From positions 5,187,247 to 5,251,246 of the forward strand of contig NZ_CP090978.1 in the NCBI RefSeq assembly GCF_021513275.1: a DNA stretch of 64,000 nucleotides, given 5' to 3'. Each line of letters begins with the position of its first letter. Within the stretch, counting starts at the first letter, position 1. The translations under genes were made by a program, and so were the position numbers. The notes beneath the pieces are model-generated. The model saw nothing but the letters and a program-made list of their open reading frames with translations. It had not been told where the DNA came from and did not search any database. This DNA is from Paenibacillus hexagrammi. GTDB lineage: Bacteria; Bacillota; Bacilli; Paenibacillales; NBRC-103111. Shown here in pieces: positions 5,078 through 17,517 of this stretch.

Positions 5078-5962
5078 TCATTGTGACATTTGATAGTTAT
5101 GTAAATTTTCTTTCGTATGTGAAAGCAGCGAAAAATCGCCCCAACTTTTATGGCCAGGAATAACAATTTGGGCGTCCGGGTATTTATTTATCAGATTTTG
5201 AATGGTAAACGGCCAAGCATCCATGGTGGCTTCATCAATAATCCCAACGTTTTGCTGTTCTAAAGAAAAAATCATATCCCCAAACAATATCTTATATTGA
5301 GGAAACCAAATCGTAATATTGTCCTTCGTATGTGCTTCTCCGGGGTAATAGGCTTCGATGATCGTTTTGCCATACTTCATTAACGGATGATCGTCCAGAG
5401 CAGGATCAGGTACAGGGTACCCTGCCTCTTTAGCCATATGTGCAATCAATGCTGTACTTTCAACGGGGATTTTATGTTTCAATAACGTGCCTATACCACC
5501 GATTCGATCGATTTTATGGTGGGTGATAATCGCTTTTTTTACTCGTTTATGAAAATGATCATGTATTAATGTTAGCAGTTCTTCTGCCAGTTGATCATTC
5601 CATGTCGCATCAATAAGAATAAGCCCTTGCGAAGTATTGACAAGAAGTCCATTTGCTGGAACTTCATTCCCGTTTATGTTCATGGTGGTCGTATGAACCC
5701 AGAGTTCATCGTTTAGTTTTGTTAGTGTGACCGATCCATCAGAGTTGGAAATTTTGGATTCACTCGTTCCCTTGTCGCTATTTACTTGTACTACTGTCGA
5801 ATGGGATGCCTGTGCTCTGTTAAAAATCCCAATACTTATAAGAGCACTTATCATGAATCCTGCACTTAAAAAACGAATTATTGCTCCGAGCGTCATTCCC
5901 TGTAACGGTTTCATCATCATTCTCCTCCATTTCGATGTTGTGAAACATTTTTTTAGCCTCAC
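5078..5962 (-). CDS. Subclass-B1-like metallo-beta-lactamase fold protein (BcII homolog) with a signal peptide/TM and non-canonical metal ligands
   Basis: Strong colinear similarity to Bacillus cereus BcII ('LLVNTSQGLILIDATW', 'YYPGEAHTKDNITIWFPQYKILFG', 'VIPGHKSWGD'). The HxHxD motif reads 'THHKID', and the Cys221-equivalent region reads 'FGDMIF' with no Cys. The true start is probably the internal MMMKPLQG. Confidence 0.7.
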   Translation of the reverse strand: MRLKKCFTTSKWRRMMMKPLQGMTLGAIIRFLSAGFMISALISIGIFNRAQASHSTVVQVNSDKGTSESKISNSDGSVTLTKLNDELWVHTTTMNINGNEVPANGLLVNTSQGLILIDATWNDQLAEELLTLIHDHFHKRVKKAIITHHKIDRIGGIGTLLKHKIPVESTALIAHMAKEAGYPVPDPALDDHPLMKYGKTIIEAYYPGEAHTKDNITIWFPQYKILFGDMIFSLEQQNVGIIDEATMDAWPFTIQNLINKYPDAQIVIPGHKSWGDFSLLSHTKENLHNYQMSQ

Positions 5963-6127: not shown

Positions 6128-6822
6128 CTATTTAAGTTGCAAGTCCAAAAGTCCATATTTCCGCTTATACCGCTCCATAATTCTCATCCAAGCCGGTCCT
6201 AAGAGTGACAAGAAGAACACGTTGCTAAGCGCATGTGCGAGGTCGAAATAAAAGCTGGAAGCATAGGCTGCCAGGAACGAGGCCCATGTGAGGTTTTGCC
6301 CCATGCTGGCCAAAAACCAAATATTCATGATCCATCCGAATACAAATCCCCAGACAAACCCGAAGATGGCTAGTGTGATGCGGCCCCTCAGCCAGCCCCA
6401 ACGGTACAATTGTCCGGCCGTCCAGCCGATCATGCCCCAGCCGAACATTTGCCACGGAGTCCACGGACCTTGACCAAGGAACATGTTCGAGACCAAGGCA
6501 GCGACTGCGCCGACCATAAATCCGGTTTCGGGCCAAAGACGACCGCGCATACGATGATAACAAAGGAGGTCGGCTGCACACTTGGCAATGCGGCAAAGGG
6601 AACGCGTCCTACCGCGGCTATAGCGGCCATCACTGCGATCAGCACGATTTCGCGAGCTTGCAGGGAGCGCTGCTCGAAGCGAAGAAAGAAGGGCACGATG
6701 GAAGCGCAGACCAAGAACAACGATAGTAGTAAATATTGCTCGTCATTCATCCAGGTCATGAACGCTAGCCCGCCTAAGAATAAGAGAAGTACGATGAGGA
6801 AAGAAACTCGTGTTCGAGCCAT
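6128..6822 (-). pseudogene. ECF transporter S (substrate-specific) component, split into two overlapping ORFs by a frameshift near 6540
   Basis: ORFs 6430..6822 and 6128..6550 are both polytopic membrane proteins. They join as ...VVFGP|ETGFMVGA... after a 1-nt insertion in a short C/G run. The locus sits immediately downstream of the ECF A and T genes. Confidence 0.6.
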
Positions 6823-6823
6823 G

Positions 6824-8554
6824 TTAGTTCCACCTCATTAGCTGGTTCATTGCCGTCGTATAGTACAAATTATCGCTAAAAAATAGCTTCGGGTCCTGCG
6901 CTGCCGTCAGCGTGCCATCGAACATCATGGTGCACCTTGTCGCATACTCGGCGGCAAATTCTATATCATGCGTGACCATGACAATTGTTTTGCCGATCCG
7001 CTTTAGCTCACGGAGCCTCTCCCCCCACTGCCGCTTGGCCGCGGGGTCCAGCCCCTTGGTCGGTTCATCCAGCAGCAGCAGGCTGGCTCCGGCAAGCAGA
7101 ATTCCCGCCAATGCGGCAAGCTGTCTCTCACCTTCGCTGAGATCATAGGGATGCTGCTTCAGCAGATGGAGAAGACCGAAGGTCTCCGCAGTTTGTTCCA
7201 AAGTCAGGCTCCCTTGCGAGCCCGCCCTTGCCATTGCTAGACTAAGCTCCTGCTCCACGGTCTCTTCGAGAAAATAGGTCAAAGGATTCTGATGGAGAAA
7301 TCCGACCCGCGCAGCCCGTTCATGGGCCTTCATTTTGCCAAGGTGATTGCCTTCCAATAGCACTTTTCCCTTTTGCGGCTTCATGATTCCCGCCAGGACC
7401 TTGAGAAGGGTGGTTTTGCCGGAACCATTCGCTCCGAGAATAGCTAAGCATTCCCCAGCAGCCACGCTCAGGGAAGCATTCTTCAGAACCGGCGCGATAT
7501 CCTGAGGCGTGTACTGCAGGTACACTTCGCGGCATTCCAAGAGGATAGGCTGGCGGTCGTTGCTGCTCGGTTTACTTGTCGAATCTCCTAGTCGGAACCT
7601 ATTTAATAGACTCATTGAGCTTCGCTCAGTTGTTTGTGGTGATTGAGCAGTCTGGCTTGTCTGGGTGGTCTGGGTGGTCTGGGTGGTCCGAGCAGACTGT
7701 GCGGACTGTGTAGCCTGATATCGCAAGGCTGCAAGCCATGCATGCTTACGACCTTCCTTGACGGTCAAGGGGACTTCCCTACTCACACCCGCTTGCAGAA
7801 ACAACCTTGGTATCGGCGGGACAAAATCTCTAGAATGTCCCACTTCGTTCGACCATAGCGCCTCGGTCACTTCGCGCGGTGTCCCTGAATGCTTCACTGA
7901 GCCGTCTTCCATAAACACCACCCGATCCACGATCGGCAGCAGCTCGTCAAAACGATGCTCAGCGATGATGATGGTGAGTCCAAGGTCTTGATTGATTCGA
8001 TGCAGCAATTGAATCAGTTCTCTGGCTGCGAGAGGATCGAGCTGAGCCGTAGGTTCGTCAAGCAGCAGCAGACGCGGCTGCAGAGCAAGGACAGATGCCA
8101 GCTGCACGAGCTGTTTTTGCCCGCCTGAGAGTTCAAATACTGGCTTGCTCAGCCAAGCATCCAGTCCAAAATAGTGGGACAACTCCGCCACTCTTCGTCT
8201 CATCAGCTCAGATTCAAAGCCGACGTTCTCCATTGTAAAAACAAGCTCGGACAGCACTCGGTCCGTTACCGTCTGATTCTCCGGGCTTTGCTGCACCATG
8301 CCGATGTGTCTAGCCATGAAGCTGTCATCATATGCGGAAAGCGGTTTACCTTCAAAAAGCACTTCCCCGCTACTTGTGCCGACGGGCGAAAGCTCTCTTT
8401 TGATATGCCGTAAAAGCGTTGTCTTGCCGCAGCCGGATGTCCCGCACAAGAGCACAAATTCGCCGGGCTGAACGGTGAGGTTGATTTGATCAAGAATGGT
8501 ACGTTCACTTGCCGGGTAACAGAAGCTTAGTTCTTGAATGTCCAAGATCGCCAT
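6824..8554 (-). CDS. ecfA: ECF transporter ATPase, fused tandem ABC domains (EcfA-EcfA') with a TTQ-repeat linker
   Basis: Two Walker A sites ('GANGSGKTTLLK', 'GTSGCGKTTLLR'), two 'LSGGQ/LSEGE' signatures and two Walker B 'LLLDEPT' sites. Linker 'TTQTTQTTQTSQTAQSPQTT'. Start set at the internal MAILDIQEL to limit overlap with ecfT. Confidence 0.85.
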   Translation of the reverse strand: MAILDIQELSFCYPASERTILDQINLTVQPGEFVLLCGTSGCGKTTLLRHIKRELSPVGTSSGEVLFEGKPLSAYDDSFMARHIGMVQQSPENQTVTDRVLSELVFTMENVGFESELMRRRVAELSHYFGLDAWLSKPVFELSGGQKQLVQLASVLALQPRLLLLDEPTAQLDPLAARELIQLLHRINQDLGLTIIIAEHRFDELLPIVDRVVFMEDGSVKHSGTPREVTEALWSNEVGHSRDFVPPIPRLFLQAGVSREVPLTVKEGRKHAWLAALRYQATQSAQSARTTQTTQTTQTSQTAQSPQTTERSSMSLLNRFRLGDSTSKPSSNDRQPILLECREVYLQYTPQDIAPVLKNASLSVAAGECLAILGANGSGKTTLLKVLAGIMKPQKGKVLLEGNHLGKMKAHERAARVGFLHQNPLTYFLEETVEQELSLAMARAGSQGSLTLEQTAETFGLLHLLKQHPYDLSEGERQLAALAGILLAGASLLLLDEPTKGLDPAAKRQWGERLRELKRIGKTIVMVTHDIEFAAEYATRCTMMFDGTLTAAQDPKLFFSDNLYYTTAMNQLMRWN

Positions 8555-8573
8555 GTCCACACCTCCTTTGCCT

Positions 8574-9413
8574 CTACGATGACCGGCACTGCAGCAAATA
8601 GCGTAAAGCACCCGTATGCCAGCAGTTCCACTCCTGTATGGATACTTCTCCAAGTGACGGGAAGATCTTGTACTCGCCGTAACCTAACATATGAAACACG
8701 ATACTGCTTATAAATAAAACGGAAAGCAGCCCCAGCAGACGAATGTCCCGGGGCATCAGCGCATACGCCTCATACCGGCTGCGCGTTCCCGAGCCATAGC
8801 CTTTTGCTTTCATAGCATCCGCCGTTTGCAGCGCTTCCTCCAGGCTGAGTGTCAGCAGGATTTGCAGCAGCTTCATGCCGTCGGTCATCCGTTTGCGTAA
8901 GCTGCCGTGCGCGATATTAATTCCTTTCATTCGTTGGACCGAAGCGATGTCGGTTAGTCTGCGCTTTAATAGCGGTACAAATCGCATGGACATGACGACG
9001 AGCAGCCCTATTTTCGGAAAATAGGAACCAAAGATATACAAAAACCTCGAAGGCGGCAGCACCGCGTTGAAGGAAATGAACAGCACCAGGATGTTGAGCA
9101 GGTTGACCGTGGAATATCCTCCATATGCAAGGGACTCAAGCGTCACCGGCTGATCCCAAAAATAAAACAAGATATGCCGCCCCCGATGAGAAAACAGCGG
9201 ATTGAGAAGAGCGTACAGCAAACTGATAGGAAGATAGAACTTCAGCATGCTGAGCAGCGCCCTGCTCTCGCGGTTTAACATCGTAAGCAGCACACCGGTC
9301 ATCAGGAGAGTCAGTAGATAGACAGGATGCGTAACGAGCATTCCGAGCAGCATAGCGCCGATGTAGTAGAAAAAGCATACGAACGGATGAAAGGAGCGAA
9401 AGCCGCTTTTCAT
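8574..9413 (-). CDS. ecfT: ECF transporter transmembrane T component (EcfT/CbiQ family)
   Basis: Polytopic membrane protein with CbiQ-like features ('RFVPLL', 'SLEEALQTADAMKAKGY'). Start chosen at MKSGFRSF, adjacent to the upstream stop. Confidence 0.8.
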   Translation of the reverse strand: MKSGFRSFHPFVCFFYYIGAMLLGMLVTHPVYLLTLLMTGVLLTMLNRESRALLSMLKFYLPISLLYALLNPLFSHRGRHILFYFWDQPVTLESLAYGGYSTVNLLNILVLFISFNAVLPPSRFLYIFGSYFPKIGLLVVMSMRFVPLLKRRLTDIASVQRMKGINIAHGSLRKRMTDGMKLLQILLTLSLEEALQTADAMKAKGYGSGTRSRYEAYALMPRDIRLLGLLSVLFISSIVFHMLGYGEYKIFPSLGEVSIQEWNCWHTGALRYLLQCRSS

Positions 9414-10408
9414 GGCATTTTCGCTCCGACGTCTTCGCCCAAATCCAGCGTGTACAGCCATTCGATTTTATCTCCTGGAGCTGCTTTATAGGAACCTGCT
9501 CCTTCGCCCGGAGCCTTTCCGTTCACTTTGTACACCCAACCGCTCTTAGGTCCGCGGTCAAATTCGTACAAATTATCGATGCCTTGGACATAAGCAAATG
9601 TACCCCTGCCTTGGTATTCCATTTGGATTTTATTTGCTTTGGTCACCTGCTTGAGCGCATCCAGCACGGTCATGCCTTCCTGAACAGGTACGGATGTCTC
9701 CTGCAAAATAGAGCCAAGCTTATCATCGCCTGTAATGCTGATACTAATAGCGGTTGTGGCTGGAGAAGGCGCTTGCTGGGAAGACGGCTCTGCCGTTCCT
9801 CCGCCACTTGCAGATGGCTGATTCGCTGAGTCTGCATTGGAGGAGGGCTCGACTGACCCTAGCATTGATGAAGAGGTGCTAGAGGCCGTCTGGGACCCGC
9901 CCGATGCAGATGTATCGGCACTAGACTGCAGAGTGTCTCCTTGTTCAGATGTATTGGCACTAGTAGACCGCTGGGGGGCTCCTTGTGATGATGCATTGGC
10001 ATCGAAGGTTTGTGCTTCTCCTTGCACGGTTGGATTTGCATTGGAAGAGGATTGGGCTCCTCCTTGTAGCGTGGCATTCGTACTTACGGATGCTTGAGCT
10101 GCACTTGTACCTGCGGCAGCCGACTCCGTACCGCCACTAAGCAGGCTCGAGCTGCCTGCTGCAGAGGCAGAGCTGCCCGGTTGACCTCCGTTGGAGGACA
10201 TAGTTGGGTCCGTATCCTGCTGTGCCGATTGATCAGCAGGTTTCGGGCCAGAGTTGTTTGTGCTGCTTACATGGAGACTGCCTGCCTTCGCATCGCTTCC
10301 ATTTGCGGCTGCCAGGTCAGATGAGCCAGCTTCCTGCTTGATGTGTGAACCGCAGCCTGAAGTAACAAGCATGCATGCTACTCCAAGCAGGATATACCAT
10401 TTATTCAT
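9410..10408 (-). CDS. Lipoprotein with S/A/G/T-rich linker and C-terminal DUF4430 (transcobalamin beta-domain-like) domain
   Basis: Lipobox 'LVTSGC'. Long low-complexity linker. C-terminal 'AYVQGIDNLYEFDRGPKSGWVYKVNGKAPGEGAGSYKAAPGDKIEWLYT' matches the DUF4430 pattern. Confidence 0.75.
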   Translation of the reverse strand: MNKWYILLGVACMLVTSGCGSHIKQEAGSSDLAAANGSDAKAGSLHVSSTNNSGPKPADQSAQQDTDPTMSSNGGQPGSSASAAGSSSLLSGGTESAAAGTSAAQASVSTNATLQGGAQSSSNANPTVQGEAQTFDANASSQGAPQRSTSANTSEQGDTLQSSADTSASGGSQTASSTSSSMLGSVEPSSNADSANQPSASGGGTAEPSSQQAPSPATTAISISITGDDKLGSILQETSVPVQEGMTVLDALKQVTKANKIQMEYQGRGTFAYVQGIDNLYEFDRGPKSGWVYKVNGKAPGEGAGSYKAAPGDKIEWLYTLDLGEDVGAKMP

Positions 10409-10491: not shown

Positions 10492-13400
10492 TTACTTTTT
10501 TGTCAATTCATAAGCTCTAACAGCTACGACAGCAGCCATCTCTCGAGTTGCCGAATCCTGCGGCAGGAATCTGCCGGACTCGTCGCCTTCCATGAGTCCT
10601 TGCTGTTGAACAGTTTGGATGTATGGTGCAGCGCCTTCAAATGCTTGATCTAAATCCGAGAATGAATCGGTCGCAGCATCAGCAGTTTCCAAATGCAGCG
10701 CTCTGGAAAGCATGATCGCCATTTCTTGGCGAGAGATCGCCGCATCCGGCGCGAAGCGGTCGTTGCTTACGCCTGTGGCGATACCCTTAGCTACTGCCTT
10801 CGCCACGTATCCTGCATACCAGGAGTCCGGCGCTACATCAGTAAAGCCAGTATTTACATCGGCAGAAGGAGCTTCACCCAGGATTCTCAGGAGGATCGCA
10901 GCGAATTGAATTCGAGTGATTTGTTTTTTAGGTTCAAAGGATGATTTTTCTCCGCCTGTTCCCTCAATTATATGATAGGCAGCGGCCTTCTTCACGGAAG
11001 GGAGTGCCCACGCTGCTATATCTGTTTGGTCTGCGAACACTGGAGCTGTTTCCGGCTGAGCTGGCTGGCTCACGTGGCTCGTGGACTTCAGGTAATTCTG
11101 GTATGCACCAAGTGCCATCAACGATTGCTCTGTAGCGATAACCTCCGATTGACCGTCCTTCGTATGAGGGAAAGAGCCGTCGCTCAGCTGCAAGCCTAGC
11201 AAGTAGGCCAGCATGCTTTTGTCACCGGAATGGAATTGCGGGTTGTTGACAGGATCAATACCGCTGACAGAAAGGCCCCAGATGACCTGCGCAGTGCTTT
11301 CGGCATTTTCCACACCCTTCAGTGTGAAACCGCCATCGTCGGCTTGCTGCGCGCTAAGCCATTTCACGGCTTTCTCCATGGCCGTTATTACGGTCGACTG
11401 TTCCTTGTAAGGTGTGAGTGCCGCCAACGCTGCTGCGGTCAAATCGGGCTCACCCTTCTCGCCCTTCGCCAGCGGCCAGCTGCCGTCTTGGTTTTGCGCA
11501 TCAAGGATCCATTGCAGCAGCTTTTCTGGTGTCCATTTCGCTTCTGCCGGGAGGTCATAGGAACCTCCGTGTAATGCAAGCAGCCCATAGATCGGGCCAT
11601 TGGTGCCCTGAATTTCCATTTGTTCGTTATTGTAGATGCGTTCGATCAGGTTAAAGCCGCCTATCGACTGAGGATTGCCTCCGGCAGCCTGAACGCTTAA
11701 AGCTAACCGTTCATAATCCGTCACTTTGCGGAATGTACCGTTCTTTTCCTTCAGCATGGCTATCACACTATCTAGATAGTTCGCGCTTACCGGCACACCT
11801 GCTGTATGGAGGGCATACGCCGACCAGTCACTGAGCTCGACTCCGTTCTTCAGCCACTTGGAAGCACGATCGATGGCAGGTCCAACATCTACAGAGGTGC
11901 CAGTTGTTGGCTTTTGCTCCAGTTTGGATCTATTAATAACAGCAAATTTCGTAAAATGGTTGACTAACCCTGTGACTGTTCCAGTCTCCGCATCAATGAC
12001 AGCCGGGATTGGAATCCATTCACCGGTCTCCTCGTTTAGCCAGACTAGCGCCAATTGACTTAAGTCCTCGGCTGCGAGTGGTGTTTTGATCGAGATTTGA
12101 ACGGGCTTGGCGTAGGTCAGACCTTTGGGGCCGAATTCAAAAATGGGTGAAACGAGCTCTTCGCGTTCTTGTGATGAAAGCTTGTTGACGGTAATGATTT
12201 TGCTTTCAGCTAGCGCATTCTCTGGGATTTGCAGCTTCACTTCTGATTTGGCGTCAGTAATTTCAGTTGCCGTCTTCGCTTGTGCTGTCTTTTCCAATGC
12301 AACCGCATTGCCTGCCAATTCTTTCTTGAGCGCTTCCGCAGCGGAAGCGGACATTTTCTTATCCGCATTGACAATCACTGCAGGCTTGGAAATTTGTTGA
12401 ATTGGTTTCTTGTTGTCGTAAGCCAGCTCCAGATTTTTCACTTTATCTGCGACTTCAGAGGTAGATGTTCCTGTTGCTGTAGTCGCTCCACCGCCTACTG
12501 GGGAAGGTGCGTTCAAATCATTGCCACCGTCTTTCGTATAACGCCAAGATACGGAGTCGCCGGACTTCAGTAGTACCGAGTCTGCGCCTGTACTCAAGTA
12601 GCTGCCGTTAACTGCGTACATCCATCCGCTTAGCGGCCCCTCGTCGAATTCTCTTAAACCGTCTATGCCCTGCACATATGCGGTTGAGCCCGAGCCCGAT
12701 GATTGAACACGGTTTGCTCCCAACGTGCGAATCAACAAAGAGTATGGTGTGTCGCCGCTCTGTAAGGCAACCGACCTTGTGGAAAGGATGGTTCCCTTAT
12801 TACTATCACCTGTCACGGAGAGGTAGACGATTGGGCTTCCTCCCGTATTCGTGCCTCCGTCTACTCGGGGCTGAATGGTAATCGGCTGCGACATATGGAC
12901 AATGATCGGAGTGCTGTTCGCCTTGTACCCTGAGATGTCCATATCATACGATCCAGCAGGCAGACCCGCGAATGTAACTGTGCCCTGGCTGTCCGTTACC
13001 GCTGTTAGTCCGCCGACTTTTACTTGGACGCCTTCCGCTGGTGAAGGCGTGTCGAAGCCGGATGTTTTTAGAATATTTACGGTGAAAGATTCGTTCGCTT
13101 TCGGCTGCGAAGGGTTTAGTGTTATGGAATTGACCAGGAAAGTGGTCGAGTTCCAGTCAGTATCAAATCCGCTGAAGTAAACGACCGCTCGTTCACCTGG
13201 GTGAAGCGTATAGTCTGCCATCCCTACCATAGGAATGGTCCATTTGCCTTGGCTGTAGATCGCGTAGCTCCATGCATCGGCATCGGATTCGATGGATTGC
13301 AGATACCCGTTATCTATGTGCTTATGAATCTGATGCTCTACCAGGATGTTTTCGATACTATCCAACAAATTAGGCGAGTTCGCCGCATCCACAGCAAAAG

Positions 13401-15021
13401 TTTGGGATGAACCCTCAATTTGAATCATAGCTGTGCCCACTTCAAAAGACTTGGAAGCAGCAGCGATCTTAGGTGCAGTCCCTGTCTGATAACCTGACAC
13501 TACTGCTTGATAGGTTCCACCGGAAAAACCGGCGGGGAATTGAGCGACACCGTAGGTGTCTGTCTGCACGGTTTGCCCGTTTATCTCCACAGAGACGTTC
13601 TCAGCCTCTTTGATATTTTCTTGATGGTTTTGATAATCATACACGGATTGATAAACCGTTACTGTAACCGCCTCACCTGCAACGGGCAAGGCAGGGTCTA
13701 TCGTGATCGACTGAACGAGTGCTGTACTATACCCTGTGTAGTACAAATACACGTCATCGCCAGCACGCAGTTGGTAATCGTGCATGTTGGTGGCACCAAC
13801 GGTTGCGTAATCCCATGATCCTTGACGCTTAACGTTGTAATACCACCATGTGTTACCGGTTCCACTTATGCCGTTAACGGCATGGAAATAATGACTTCCA
13901 TCTGCATCAAATGATACGCCCGAAGCCTGCAAAACCTGCACAGCCGCATCAAACGCATTACTCGCCGTCACCGCTCCTTCGGCCAAAATACCTGCCGGAC
14001 CTGCGACGTGAACCGTCACACTCGCATCCGAAGATGACCCACCGCCGATGACGGGTACAGATACATACGACCCGCTGTTGCCCCCGGTAAACGCATCATA
14101 ATCCACTAATGCCATTAAAGCCTGACCAGTTGCACCTGTATCCGAAGCACTGCTACTTGTAAGATGGACGAAGCCGCCGTCACTTCTGCGGTAGGTAAAC
14201 AGATAGCTGAGCGGATTTCCGTTAGCTTTGGTAAAGCTGGCGCTGCGCGCGTCTACACCTGCTGCGGAAAGTCCAATAATCACCTGTGCGGTACTCTCGG
14301 AATTTTCCCCGTACTCGGTAAATCCTCCGTTGTCTAATTGCTTCGAAGAGAGCCATTGAACGCCGCCTTCAATCGCTTGCTGGACAACTGGCAAGTCTTT
14401 ATACACGGAAAGGGCTTTAATTGCCGAAGCCGTGATATCGATGCTGCTATCGCCACCTGACGAGAGCGGGAAGCCGCCGTCGGCGTTCTTTTGCGTGAGC
14501 AGCCACGCTGCGATTTTATCCGGTTTCCACTTCGCTGTTAACGGAATATTGTACGCTCCGCTGCTTAAGGCTTGCAGGGCATAAATCGCACCGTTGCTGC
14601 CTTGCGCCGTCAGTACATCGCTGTTATAGATGCTCTGAATCAGATTGTACGTCCCGGTTCCCGTTACAACCTGCTCGGGATTACCGCCTGCAGCCTTCAC
14701 GGCCAGTGCTATCCTTGCGTAATCGGTGACGTTGTTGTATTGGCCGTTTTTTAGTCCGACCTGACTGCTGACCGAGGATAAATACGATGCCGGTACCGAC
14801 TTACCTGCTTTCGCTAGCGCATAGGCATCCCAATCGGTAATGTTGTCTCCGTTCGCTGCTAATAGATAGCCAGCTGCATCCTCTATCGCTTGCGGGACGG
14901 TTACAGTCCCTTGATCTCCTTGATCCGCATACACCGGCACAGCTCCGCTAAAAGCGGAAATGAGCAAACACCAGATCAGCAGGATCATGCTTACTTTTTG
15001 TACGACTTGCTTTCTTTCCAT
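10492..15021 (-). CDS. Giant (1509 aa) secreted S-layer-anchored protein: 2 alpha/alpha-toroid (prenyltransferase/terpene-cyclase-like) domains, 3 DUF4430-like modules, 3 C-terminal SLH domains
   Basis: Signal peptide. Repeated 'Q..DGGF'-type motifs (QKNADGGFPL, KQLDNGGFTEYG, RRSDGGFVHL, QNQDGSWPL, QQADDGGFTL). DUF4430-like segments around 'WWYYNVKRQG', 'WSYAIYSQGKW' and 'LSGWMYAVNGSY'. Three SLH repeats at the C-terminus. Confidence 0.8.
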   Translation of the reverse strand: MERKQVVQKVSMILLIWCLLISAFSGAVPVYADQGDQGTVTVPQAIEDAAGYLLAANGDNITDWDAYALAKAGKSVPASYLSSVSSQVGLKNGQYNNVTDYARIALAVKAAGGNPEQVVTGTGTYNLIQSIYNSDVLTAQGSNGAIYALQALSSGAYNIPLTAKWKPDKIAAWLLTQKNADGGFPLSSGGDSSIDITASAIKALSVYKDLPVVQQAIEGGVQWLSSKQLDNGGFTEYGENSESTAQVIIGLSAAGVDARSASFTKANGNPLSYLFTYRRSDGGFVHLTSSSASDTGATGQALMALVDYDAFTGGNSGSYVSVPVIGGGSSSDASVTVHVAGPAGILAEGAVTASNAFDAAVQVLQASGVSFDADGSHYFHAVNGISGTGNTWWYYNVKRQGSWDYATVGATNMHDYQLRAGDDVYLYYTGYSTALVQSITIDPALPVAGEAVTVTVYQSVYDYQNHQENIKEAENVSVEINGQTVQTDTYGVAQFPAGFSGGTYQAVVSGYQTGTAPKIAAASKSFEVGTAMIQIEGSSQTFAVDAANSPNLLDSIENILVEHQIHKHIDNGYLQSIESDADAWSYAIYSQGKWTIPMVGMADYTLHPGERAVVYFSGFDTDWNSTTFLVNSITLNPSQPKANESFTVNILKTSGFDTPSPAEGVQVKVGGLTAVTDSQGTVTFAGLPAGSYDMDISGYKANSTPIIVHMSQPITIQPRVDGGTNTGGSPIVYLSVTGDSNKGTILSTRSVALQSGDTPYSLLIRTLGANRVQSSGSGSTAYVQGIDGLREFDEGPLSGWMYAVNGSYLSTGADSVLLKSGDSVSWRYTKDGGNDLNAPSPVGGGATTATGTSTSEVADKVKNLELAYDNKKPIQQISKPAVIVNADKKMSASAAEALKKELAGNAVALEKTAQAKTATEITDAKSEVKLQIPENALAESKIITVNKLSSQEREELVSPIFEFGPKGLTYAKPVQISIKTPLAAEDLSQLALVWLNEETGEWIPIPAVIDAETGTVTGLVNHFTKFAVINRSKLEQKPTTGTSVDVGPAIDRASKWLKNGVELSDWSAYALHTAGVPVSANYLDSVIAMLKEKNGTFRKVTDYERLALSVQAAGGNPQSIGGFNLIERIYNNEQMEIQGTNGPIYGLLALHGGSYDLPAEAKWTPEKLLQWILDAQNQDGSWPLAKGEKGEPDLTAAALAALTPYKEQSTVITAMEKAVKWLSAQQADDGGFTLKGVENAESTAQVIWGLSVSGIDPVNNPQFHSGDKSMLAYLLGLQLSDGSFPHTKDGQSEVIATEQSLMALGAYQNYLKSTSHVSQPAQPETAPVFADQTDIAAWALPSVKKAAAYHIIEGTGGEKSSFEPKKQITRIQFAAILLRILGEAPSADVNTGFTDVAPDSWYAGYVAKAVAKGIATGVSNDRFAPDAAISRQEMAIMLSRALHLETADAATDSFSDLDQAFEGAAPYIQTVQQQGLMEGDESGRFLPQDSATREMAAVVAVRAYELTKK

Positions 15022-15082: not shown

Positions 15083-15189
15083 ATTACGCTTTACGCATAG
15101 ATTAGCTGGCCAGATAGATGTACAAAAGGAAGTACACTCATGCAGCCGTTTCCCCCTCTCCTATTCCCGCGTAGGCGATGGTACTGACA

Positions 15190-15350
15190 TTCAACAGATA
15201 TCCTGACTTGCGGATCGTAGCTAATCTCCCGTCTTCCCATCCTTCTTAAAAAGGATAGTGACATCTTGAAAGCAGCTCCCCGCTTACAGTGGCGCGACCG
15301 TGCCGGATTCTCACCGGACTTCCCTGTTTGGTTACCGAATGCGGACTGAA
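15190..15350 (-). promoter_or_regulatory. Cobalamin (B12) riboswitch aptamer
   Basis: The minus strand reads '...GGGAAGUCCGGUGAGAAUCCGGCACGGUCGCGCCACUGUAAGCGGGGAG...AAGUCAGGAUAUCUG'. The conserved GGUG/AAUCCGG core, the GCCACUG motif and a B12-box-like AAGUCAGGA all occur in canonical order. Confidence 0.8.
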
Positions 15351-15386
15351 AGGCCTTAGCATACGGTTCACTTTTAATCACTAAAA

Positions 15387-15416
15387 AGAATACCATGCGC
15401 TTGGATTGGCGTCCAA
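15387..15416 (-). promoter_or_regulatory. Candidate sigma-A promoter driving the riboswitch and surface-protein operon
   Basis: Minus strand TTGGAC-(18 nt)-TATTCT, just upstream of the aptamer. Confidence 0.3.
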
Positions 15417-15630
15417 GGTTTTTTCGTGAATTTTTGACAAAAATCGAGAGGATTTTCAAATGACCGAGCACTCAGAAGATTCAACAGGACACTTTCAATG
15501 AAATTGATGCACATGCAAAAAGGAGCTAGCCCTGGTTTAGGTGGGCAGCTCTTTGGTTTTGTTATCCTGCGTTACTTCGCTGATTTTACACAGAGTTGCA
15601 GAACTAGCACTTTGATCTCGCCTCTAGTAG

Positions 15631-17517
15631 TTACTGCGGAAAAATCAGCGTAATGGCCGTACCCTTCCCTTCCTTGCTAAGAACGCGCATCCACTTGCCT
15701 GCGCCGTAATGCAGCGTTAGCCTTTTGCTTGTATTAAAGAGTCCTACATGCTTGCCTTGCATAGAGTCTGACTCAAACGACGCGCGAATGCGCTTCAGCC
15801 GTTCAAGCGGTATTCCCGGTCCATTGTCGATGATGGTAACATGCAAATTTGCACCATTCATGCGGCACTTGACCTTAACAGCCAGTTGGTCTTGTGCAGC
15901 AAGACCGATATGAATGCTGTTCTCGACTAGCGGCTGCATGCTGATTTTCACGACACGGCAGTCCTTCATCTCCGCCCTCGTGTCCCAGATCACCTGCAAG
16001 CGATCCGAGAATCGGGTCTTCTGCAGCTCGATATAGCCTCTCACATTGGCAAGCTCATCGTGCAGCGTTACCGCATCATCCGTTCCCCGCAGCGCATATT
16101 CCAGCAGGTCGCTGAGCTGTTCGATCATGACGCACGCATCATTCGGTGAACGCGTCAGTTGGAAGGCTTTCCAGTAAATCGAGTGCAAAGTGTTGGACAT
16201 AAAATGAGGGTTCATCTGCGACTGAAGCGCTTTAAGCTCCAAAAGTTCCATCTTTGCCTGCCGCTCGGAGAGCTGGATGCGCAAATATTTTTGCTCCAGG
16301 AACGTATCAAGAATATTTTTGACGATTAGCTCGTACACGTCTTGAATCTTGTCCGGCATGGCAGGGACGGTGTCATCATGGCGATCGGCATGCTCCAGCA
16401 CATGGACGATTTGCGTAACTTGTCGGTAATTTTTCCTAGTGATCCAGAGAGCGTAGATGATACTCAGCAGCAAGGAGAACACGGATAGCGCCAAGGTAAT
16501 GTACACGATCATCCTCGGAAGGCTGTACAACGCTTTGGTCGGGATGACGGATACGGCTATCCAAGCCAGGCGCGGGGATTGCTTCATTGTAACTAAAGCG
16601 CCGCCTAAGGAAGAGCGGATCAAATGCCCTTCTGCTAGCTGCTCAGACTCTGGCAGCGGGATGCTGCCTCCGAAGCTGTCAGAGGTAATCAGCGGATCGC
16701 CGCTTGGGTCTGCGATATACGAATAGCTGCCCTGCCAGTCGTTAAACAAATTCAATGATTTGGCGAAATAGGAAGGCAGGACATTCATCACAATCACGCC
16801 GCGGGGATGCCCGTCCTCATTAAGTCCCCCGAACGGCTGATACACGGTTAGCACCTGCGTGGTGCCATTAGGGTCAGAGCTGGCCACTAGCTCGCGAGGC
16901 TGTGTAACCAGTTCTTCTTCTCCACTGAATACCTTGGACTGGTAAAAGGTGTACCAGCTCGTATCCAGCACCGAATCCATCTGGGCAATGCCGTCACGCG
17001 AACTTAAAAACCGCCCTTGCGAATTCTCATAATAAATATAAATGGAATGGATGTAAGATTTGGAATTAGCCGGAACATCAATGACGTTGCGCAAATAAAA
17101 CAGTGCCTCTACCTCTTCAAAGGAAAACGAAGTCGTATTGAGTATATTTTTCAACCGAAGTTTGATCTTTGGATCCTTGTCAAAGGAAAGACTTAAAGAA
17201 TCAAGCTCTGCAGGAATGACCTCCGTAAGCTGATTAATTTGATTCAGCCGGTTTTCACTGTTCTGTTCCACAGAGCCGCGGATGTACCAAACTGTAATAA
17301 AGATGGACAAGGAGCCTAGTATGGTCAGAGGAATGAGCGACAGCACGATCACTCGTCTCAGGTTGTCTGCGAAAAATTTTCGCGCTAAAGCTGCATCACT
17401 CTGCTTGACATATTTAATGCTCGTGCTTGAACTGCCCTGGCGTTTTCCCGTAATACTGCTTAAAAGCGCGTATAAAATTTTTCGCATTCGCATATCCCAC
17501 CATTTCGCTGACCTCAA
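15631..17517 (-). CDS. Sensor histidine kinase, YesM-like (2 TM, extracellular sensor, HAMP, HisKA_3-like, HATPase)
   Basis: H-box 'MNPHFMSNTLHSIYW' and 'IIDNGPGI' ATPase motifs. The N-terminus overlaps the response-regulator C-terminus, so the true start may be downstream. Confidence 0.85.
   Translation of the reverse strand: MRSAKWWDMRMRKILYALLSSITGKRQGSSSTSIKYVKQSDAALARKFFADNLRRVIVLSLIPLTILGSLSIFITVWYIRGSVEQNSENRLNQINQLTEVIPAELDSLSLSFDKDPKIKLRLKNILNTTSFSFEEVEALFYLRNVIDVPANSKSYIHSIYIYYENSQGRFLSSRDGIAQMDSVLDTSWYTFYQSKVFSGEEELVTQPRELVASSDPNGTTQVLTVYQPFGGLNEDGHPRGVIVMNVLPSYFAKSLNLFNDWQGSYSYIADPSGDPLITSDSFGGSIPLPESEQLAEGHLIRSSLGGALVTMKQSPRLAWIAVSVIPTKALYSLPRMIVYITLALSVFSLLLSIIYALWITRKNYRQVTQIVHVLEHADRHDDTVPAMPDKIQDVYELIVKNILDTFLEQKYLRIQLSERQAKMELLELKALQSQMNPHFMSNTLHSIYWKAFQLTRSPNDACVMIEQLSDLLEYALRGTDDAVTLHDELANVRGYIELQKTRFSDRLQVIWDTRAEMKDCRVVKISMQPLVENSIHIGLAAQDQLAVKVKCRMNGANLHVTIIDNGPGIPLERLKRIRASFESDSMQGKHVGLFNTSKRLTLHYGAGKWMRVLSKEGKGTAITLIFPQ

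Follow-up and report, generated by a model that had tools for sequence, protein, structure and literature searches.

A canonical cobalamin riboswitch with a predicted transcription-attenuating platform precedes a putative corrinoid-uptake operon in Paenibacillus hexagrammi

The window analyzed here, by which we mean the whole 64-kb stretch of DNA, comes from Paenibacillus hexagrammi: the 1509-aa product of the first gene listed below is 100% identical to a protein of that species named "S-layer homology domain-containing protein." Upstream of this gene, on the minus strand, lies a leader with the features of a cobalamin riboswitch, and the genes that it is predicted to regulate follow in the order given here.

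10492-15021, minus: first regulated gene, encoding a secreted protein of 1509 aa that carries a signal peptide, a pair of alpha/alpha-toroid (prenyltransferase-like) modules, DUF4430 (transcobalamin C-terminal type), and three C-terminal SLH domains (Pfam)
9410-10408, minus: second regulated gene, encoding a 332-aa DUF4430 protein (Pfam DUF4430, 70.9 bits; NCBI "DUF4430 domain-containing protein")
8574-9461, minus: third regulated gene, encoding an ECF T component of the CbiQ family (Pfam CbiQ)
6824-8653, minus: fourth regulated gene, encoding a fused ECF A-A' ATPase with two ABC_tran domains (NCBIfam ECF_ATPase_1, 327.9 bits; cut-off, 315)
6128-6822, minus: fifth regulated gene, encoding a CbrT-like ECF S component, split into ORFs 6430-6822 and 6128-6550 by a frameshift near 6535-6540

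Orthologous loci have the T-component and ATPase genes in this same order. A TTG codon opens the mechanical ORF for the ATPase, which overlaps the T-component gene by 80 nt; the true start, judged from orthologs of 550 aa, is probably the ATG of MAILDIQ near 8554. In the S-component gene, a one-base frameshift (GGCCCGAAACC) gives two overlapping ORFs, neither of which is present in the public protein collection. The joined product (about 229 to 231 aa) is encoded by a single uninterrupted ORF in more than 35 orthologous loci, and the frameshift could reflect either a real pseudogene or a sequencing error. In the related locus of Paenibacillus sp. P25 (CP085629; L006, 11600-15000), the T-component, ATPase, and S-component genes are each broken into several ORFs, which points to a low-quality assembly and not to biology.

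Two further genes flank the operon. Upstream lies a gene for a YesM-type histidine kinase (15631-17517), and between it and the leader a hairpin, GAGCUGCCC...GGGCUAGCUC followed by U5, was detected on the minus strand at 15517-15551 (ΔG = −16.4 kcal/mol, z = −1.96). This hairpin is likely the terminator of the histidine kinase gene, and because that gene would have a terminator of its own, the riboswitch appears to head a separate transcription unit. Downstream, 166 nt beyond the operon, a BcII-like secreted subclass B1 metallo-beta-lactamase is encoded at 5078-5962 on the minus strand (NCBIfam bla_subclass_B1, 221.5 bits; cut-off, 200).

A preliminary description, made from the sequence alone, had placed a cobalamin aptamer in this leader and suggested a covariance-model scan as one means of checking it. 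Scanned against Rfam 15, the minus strand of the window matched the cobalamin family RF00174 at 15365-15176 with 94.6 bits (E = 2.9e-22), three times the gathering score of 31.5 bits. The match spanned model positions 1 to 189 of 189 with no truncation and was the sole Rfam match within the window. The range originally given for the element, 15190-15350, covers the aptamer core but falls short at both ends, since the aptamer itself occupies 15365-15176 and the expression platform extends to 15050. The features of the aptamer and of the hairpin that directly follows it are listed below.

15365-15176, minus: cobalamin riboswitch aptamer, RF00174, P6-extension class (covariance-model scan)
15352-15345 with 15195-15188, minus: P1 (standard pairs only)
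15344-15335, minus: short P2 (standard pairs only)
15325-15323 with 15198-15196, minus: P3 (standard pairs only)
15324-15303, minus: conserved block GGGAAGTCCGGTGAGAATCCGG (by sequence)
15319-15302, minus: P4 (standard pairs; covaries in 51 leaders)
15299-15291, minus: P5 (standard pairs; covaries in 51 leaders)
15297-15293, minus: loop L5, UCGCG, a variant of the usual UCCCG and the aptamer side of the kissing loop (51-leader table)
15293-15287, minus: conserved block GCCACTG (by sequence)
15283-15280 with 15213-15210, minus: P6 (standard pairs; covaries in 51 leaders)
15272-15226, minus: two-part P6 extension (standard pairs; covaries in 51 leaders)
15209-15201, minus: conserved block AAGTCAGGA (by sequence)
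15209-15195, minus: B12 box AAGUCAGGAUAUCUG (by sequence)
15175-15160, minus: P13 hairpin, CCUA-CGCGGGAA-UAGG, directly after P1 (comparative)
15171-15167, minus: loop L13, CGCGG, complementary to L5

The core blocks (J3/4 GGGAA, P4-L4 GGUG..AAUCC, GCCACUG, and the B12 box) follow one another in the expected order at 15324-15303, 15293-15287, and 15209-15195, and the conserved blocks first picked out on the minus strand were all found where they had been placed. The B12 box reads GAUAUCUG against a consensus of GAGACCUG, deviating at two positions. The pairings P1 to P6, on which the original proposal also hung, can all be formed with standard pairs in the window. Several of the pairs read off the Rfam consensus line were nonstandard in the P6 region and may be noncanonical pairs annotated in the model; consensus-line pairs were replaced by helices verified directly in the window and across relatives. 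For P1, P2, and P3, checking was confined to the window and the model alignment, because the 5′ ends of the leader alignment are unreliable. Free-energy folding missed the native aptamer fold (−31.7 kcal/mol constrained versus −52.0 kcal/mol free), and the stability of the whole leader was no better than that of shuffled sequences (z = −0.56). Failure of free-energy folding by itself is as expected for a junction that depends on ligand and tertiary contacts. Given both results, the support for the structure is comparative and not thermodynamic, and we restricted thermodynamic folding to the expression platform.

To determine how widely this structure is conserved, we compared the leaders of orthologous loci. 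A search of genome contigs with the single 1509-aa protein returned no relatives, and a search with an alignment of orthologs found the loci; when exact matches were sought for the window protein, P0007, and P0008, no record came up. An Rfam riboswitch was present upstream of the gene for the 1509-aa ortholog, on the same strand, in seven of the nine loci tested (89 to 125 bits), and a sequence-profile search found the riboswitch in 51 loci. Covariation was assessed as pair counts for an explicitly stated structure (P4, P5, P6, the extension, P13, and L5-L13) in an alignment of 51 distinct leaders. Across this alignment, 92.1% of cells were paired in the stated structure, compared with 39 to 55% when the partners were slid; compensatory changes occurred in 19 of the 33 pairs, and none of 500 shuffles reached any of these measures. 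P4, P5, P6, and the extension were 78 to 100% paired, with compensatory changes. A de novo RNAalifold consensus from the same 51 leaders was partly spurious, pairing, for example, the GGG of J3/4 with P13, and was dropped in favor of the explicit-structure counts.

The preliminary description made no mention of P13, of the kissing loop, or of the antiterminator. The P13 stem consists of four pairs, with 88.7% of cells paired and compensatory changes in three of the four among the 51 leaders; on its own, the hairpin is weak (−4.1 kcal/mol). L5 and L13 were compared through alignment-anchored extraction from the same leaders. The helix between them (alignment columns 86-90 with 237-242) was 91% paired; 27 sequences have C-G as its central pair, and 12 have G-C. 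Where L5 was UCGCG, L13 was CGCG in 11 of 12 leaders, and most of the other 39 leaders combined an L5 of UCCCG with CGGG, GUGGGG, or GCGG. The survey thus provides a clean natural example of compensatory change, UCGCG/CGCG versus UCCCG/CGGG. Both L5 and L13 of the window carry the self-complementary CGCG, the usual combination being UCCCG with GGG, and this variant recurs in distant leaders (L040, L057, and L060). Such a palindromic loop could in principle allow pairing between two RNA molecules.

The expression platform follows the aptamer. About 95 nt separate the aptamer from the terminator, and this interval contains P13 and the antiterminator.

15165-15153, minus: 5′ strand of the antiterminator, AAUAGGAGAGGGG, consisting of the P13 3′ strand (overlap at 15163-15160) and the next nine bases
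15081-15050, minus: intrinsic terminator, AGCAGCCC (15081-15074), loop, GGGGUGCU (15062-15055), and U-run (15055-15050) (folding and comparison)
15080-15074, minus: terminator arm GCAGCCC (by sequence)
15076-15063, minus: 3′ strand of the antiterminator, CCCUUCUUC-A-UGUU, identical with the inner 5′ arm and loop of the terminator
15062-15050, minus: terminator arm and U-run, GGGGTGC plus T6 (by sequence)
15042-15033, minus: ribosome binding site (RBS), GGAGAGAGGA (sequence)
15021-15019, minus: ATG of the first regulated gene, whose N terminus aligns with orthologs from residue 1

The terminator hairpin is imperfect (AGCA.CCC/GGG.UGCU), with seven pairs, a G.G mismatch, and a loop of ~11 nt, and is followed by U6. 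It was missed by a consensus terminator scan, and its predicted stability (ΔG = −12.7 kcal/mol, z = −2.66) was equaled by 1 of 200 shuffles. Nearly all orthologous leaders have, in the corresponding position, a hairpin followed by U4 to U9 that is generally stronger than that of the window; in P. validus, for instance, the terminator GCAUCCCUUC-AUAGA-GAAGGGGUGC-U6 forms a perfect 11-bp stem and keeps the same antiterminator complementarity. These stronger counterparts, together with a mutually exclusive antiterminator, bear out the terminator-type platform that had been proposed from the hairpin and its U6. That hairpin had been described as lying just before the start codon; it does lie upstream of the ATG at 15021, but 28 nt separate the end of the U-run from the ATG, with the RBS in between.

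The antiterminator is a 13-bp helix that shares nucleotides with both P13 and the terminator, so that it and these elements are mutually exclusive. Constrained folds placed the two states at nearly equal energy (antiterminator state, −39.5 kcal/mol; P13 with the terminator, −38.9 kcal/mol). As long as the terminator's 3′ arm is still to be transcribed, the antiterminator is the minimum-free-energy (MFE) structure of the nascent RNA, and the helix is also present in the MFE structure of the whole leader. Equivalent helices of 7 to 10 bp are found in the orthologous leaders L006, L010, L017, L018, L041, L042, L044, and L045. Only helix lengths were used in this comparison: a purine-rich strand will pair with a pyrimidine-rich one whatever the order of their bases, so shuffle z-scores for the complementarity of antiterminator and terminator carry no information.

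These data also bear on whether control might be mainly translational, with the RBS occluded as in Escherichia coli btuB and the hairpin-U6 incidental. The MFE structure of the full leader does pair the U-run and the bases on either side of it with the purine-rich RBS region, and RBS hairpins controlled by a kissing loop are known in btuB and env8HyCbl (PMC10327014). However, neither P13 nor the antiterminator includes the RBS, which is located downstream of the terminator; the antiterminator has its complement in the terminator arm and not in the RBS; and the hairpin with its U-run recurs at the terminator position in nearly all orthologous leaders. We consider translational control quite improbable and regard transcription attenuation as the preferred reading of the platform.

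A riboswitch of this build could also be a decaying relic in which the aptamer is still recognizable and regulation has been lost in this strain. The window has a weaker terminator than its relatives and a bit score toward the low end for the family surveyed, and, because the last operon gene (the CbrT-like one) is frameshifted, the system may be decaying here; moreover, one related species has lost the entire aptamer. Against this, nothing has been lost from any helix, from the complementarity of the kissing loop, or from the antiterminator/terminator pair; scores for the two closest relatives fall in the same range as that of the window (89 to 95 bits); the other four genes of the operon are intact; and the frameshift could itself be a sequencing error. 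A relic is very improbable on this evidence, and a working attenuator remains the preferred reading. The species in question is Paenibacillus sp. S-38 (L004, 5800-5975), in which the ortholog has no cobalamin aptamer and the leader retains the −10 block TGGTATTCT, the stretch GGGAAACGGCTG, and a terminator, GGCATCCC...GGGATGC-T5. This pattern fits a deletion of ~190 nt that would have taken out the aptamer and P13. A further locus, L012, likewise gave no Rfam match.

The direction of control can be read from the way these elements overlap. In the Priestia megaterium metE corrinoid riboswitch, the kissing loop stabilizes P13, and the 3′ side of P13 pairs with the terminator's 5′ side as an antiterminator, as established by compensatory mutagenesis (Kennedy et al., PMC10327014). 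Because the elements of the window match this model, we conclude that the leader is a repressing, transcription-attenuating riboswitch, and both the aptamer and its type of expression platform are canonical and of an already known kind. From the anatomy and conservation of aptamer and platform we infer ligand binding and termination as follows. An adenosyl-corrinoid held in the aptamer would lock P13 through the L5-L13 kissing loop; locked P13 would block the antiterminator and let the terminator fold, and RNA polymerase would then halt ~30 nt ahead of the ATG. When corrinoid is scarce, the weak P13 would be outcompeted by the 13-bp antiterminator, and read-through would transcribe the genes for the S-layer-anchored transcobalamin-like protein, the DUF4430 protein, and the ECF-CbrT-type transporter. 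An activating (ON) switch of the kind represented by Alkalihalobacillus halodurans cobT, which has the same kissing loop (PMC10327014) and in which P13 itself is the antiterminator, is extremely unlikely for this leader: P13 (15175-15160) does not overlap the terminator (15081-15055), the terminator is instead overlapped by the sequence with which the P13 3′ strand can pair as an alternative, an arrangement that makes for repression, and one expects a substrate to repress the genes for its own uptake. The repressing arrangement is the one we carry forward.

As for the ligand, the aptamer offers one structural clue. Among Cbl-I aptamers, the P6 extension is tied to selectivity for AdoCbl. It is the presence of this extension in the window that suggests AdoCbl selectivity, and the likely ligand is an adenosyl-corrinoid.

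Upstream of the aptamer, we examined the candidate promoter together with the ORF that runs across the leader.

15416-15387, minus: candidate sigma-A promoter, with −35 TTGGAC (15416-15411), an 18-nt spacer, and extended −10 TGgTATTCT (15395-15387) (sequence and conservation)
15392-15387, minus: −10 hexamer TATTCT (by sequence)
15091-15471, minus: mechanical 126-aa ORF that covers promoter and aptamer and reaches into the platform (ORF listing); not a gene

The two hexamers had been proposed as a promoter from the outset, and the proposal holds up: they are at the sites given, they are conserved in two relatives, and the −10 is extended by TG, even though the −35 has only three of six consensus bases. 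Owing to this weak −35, a consensus scan did not list the promoter. In P. validus (L003) and Paenibacillus sp. P25 (L006), TTGGAC-18-TGnTATTCTTT is the sole conserved block upstream of the aptamer; with three sequences, support for the promoter is moderate, and transcription is predicted to start near 15382-15380. The scan's own call, TTGAAA-18-AAAAAT (15459-15430), lacks conservation in relatives and is the less likely promoter. An inverted repeat, CTTGGA-TTGGCG-TCCAAG, overlaps the −35 at 15400-15417, where the scan flagged a terminator-like site on the plus strand; it is not conserved in P. validus and so is probably a chance occurrence.

The ORF at 15091-15471 had been called spurious, and rightly, although it had also been called annotated: we found no sign of annotation, and it is a mechanical ORF only. 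It matched no Pfam family, was absent from a 15-billion-protein collection under three choices of start, and showed no codon periodicity (GC, 0.50/0.43/0.48 by codon position). In tblastn comparisons with related loci, similarity was confined to about residues 48 to 74, which correspond to the conserved RNA blocks, and the frame changes in P. validus, the closest relative. That its 126 uninterrupted codons on the same strand encode a real protein and the RNA match is a coincidence is a negligible prospect in view of these results and of the RNA model's E value.

Taken together, these results suggest that the minus strand at 15416-15019 is very probably the promoter and ~360-nt leader of the corrinoid-uptake operon of P. 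hexagrammi, carrying a canonical P6-extension corrinoid riboswitch that would act as an OFF switch via transcription attenuation. By itself, the riboswitch adds little: it belongs to a textbook family, it is found at three times threshold with the standard model, and the mechanism of its platform has already been dissected in a related bacillus. In practice, it serves as a functional label: the presence of a B12 riboswitch ahead of the operon in ~50 genomes marks the SLH and DUF4430 proteins as corrinoid related, and the uncharacterized cargo of the operon is the more interesting lead.

As to the cargo, transcobalamin-type proteins have DUF4430 as their C-terminal domain (PMC4350170); for DUF4430 proteins of bacteria, no functional study turned up in the literature that could be searched. 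For residues 36 to 440 of the 1509-aa protein (window 13702-14916, minus), an AlphaFold model had a mean pLDDT of 89.5. The 14 top PDB matches of the model were without exception mammalian transcobalamin, haptocorrin, or intrinsic factor, in alignments that took in both domains along their full length (E = 1.6e-8 to 1e-6, TM = 0.43 to 0.47); the next matches were terpene cyclases and prenyltransferases, which aligned over the toroid only. The same protein carries a second toroid module at about residues 1040 to 1320, further DUF4430-like stretches, and three SLH domains. At the other end of the operon, the joined S component matched the 182-aa chain A of PDB 6FNP (E = 4.7e-14), the structure of the ECF-CbrT vitamin B12 transporter (PMC5997447); to judge from its length, chain A is CbrT.

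On the basis of the model and these matches, the operon would seem to encode a wall-anchored device that captures corrinoids and supplies an ECF-CbrT importer with them. It may represent an undescribed cell-surface corrinoid-capture system of Gram-positive bacteria, a reading that we hold to be evenly balanced, in which tandem transcobalamin-fold modules anchored to the S-layer, together with the second DUF4430 protein, would scavenge corrinoids at the cell wall and pass them to a dedicated ECF-CbrT transporter. The set of capture and transport genes is conserved in Paenibacillaceae, other Bacillales, and some Clostridia. The transcobalamin-like module within the large protein thus offers a testable bacterial counterpart of the animal B12 carriers.

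Finally, we compared the locus with known systems. AdoCbl-type aptamers have been crystallized from Thermoanaerobacter tengcongensis and Symbiobacterium thermophilum. With the RF00174 class in general, the window shares the full-length match, the core blocks, P1 to P6 with the extension, the L5-L13 interaction, and a position in the 5′ untranslated region ahead of B12 transport genes. It differs in a P2 cut to 3 bp, in the two deviating positions of the B12 box, and in an L5 of UCGCG with a matching L13 of CGCG; these differences are minor and at the level of the clade. The P. megaterium metE riboswitch has the same platform logic, and in both leaders P13 alone is weaker than the antiterminator. 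In contrast to metE, the leader of the window controls an uptake operon, its P13 is a plain 4-bp stem (the metE P13 is longer and has an internal loop), and its antiterminator encloses two spacer hairpins, ~75 nt in all; the mechanism shown experimentally for metE is predicted here from sequence. E. coli btuB and env8HyCbl belong to the same aptamer family as the leader of the window and, like it, govern the platform through an L5-L13 kissing loop, but they act on the RBS and translation, whereas the window has a terminator and antiterminator and an RBS outside the switch. Relative to ECF-CbrT of Lactobacillus delbrueckii (6FNP; PMC5997447), the S component is homologous, and an ECF T component and ATPases are likewise present. 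The ECF module of the window is, however, dedicated and encoded within the operon, its two ATPases are fused, and its S-component gene is frameshifted; in addition, the operon contributes two extracytoplasmic DUF4430/transcobalamin-like proteins that are absent from the L. delbrueckii system.
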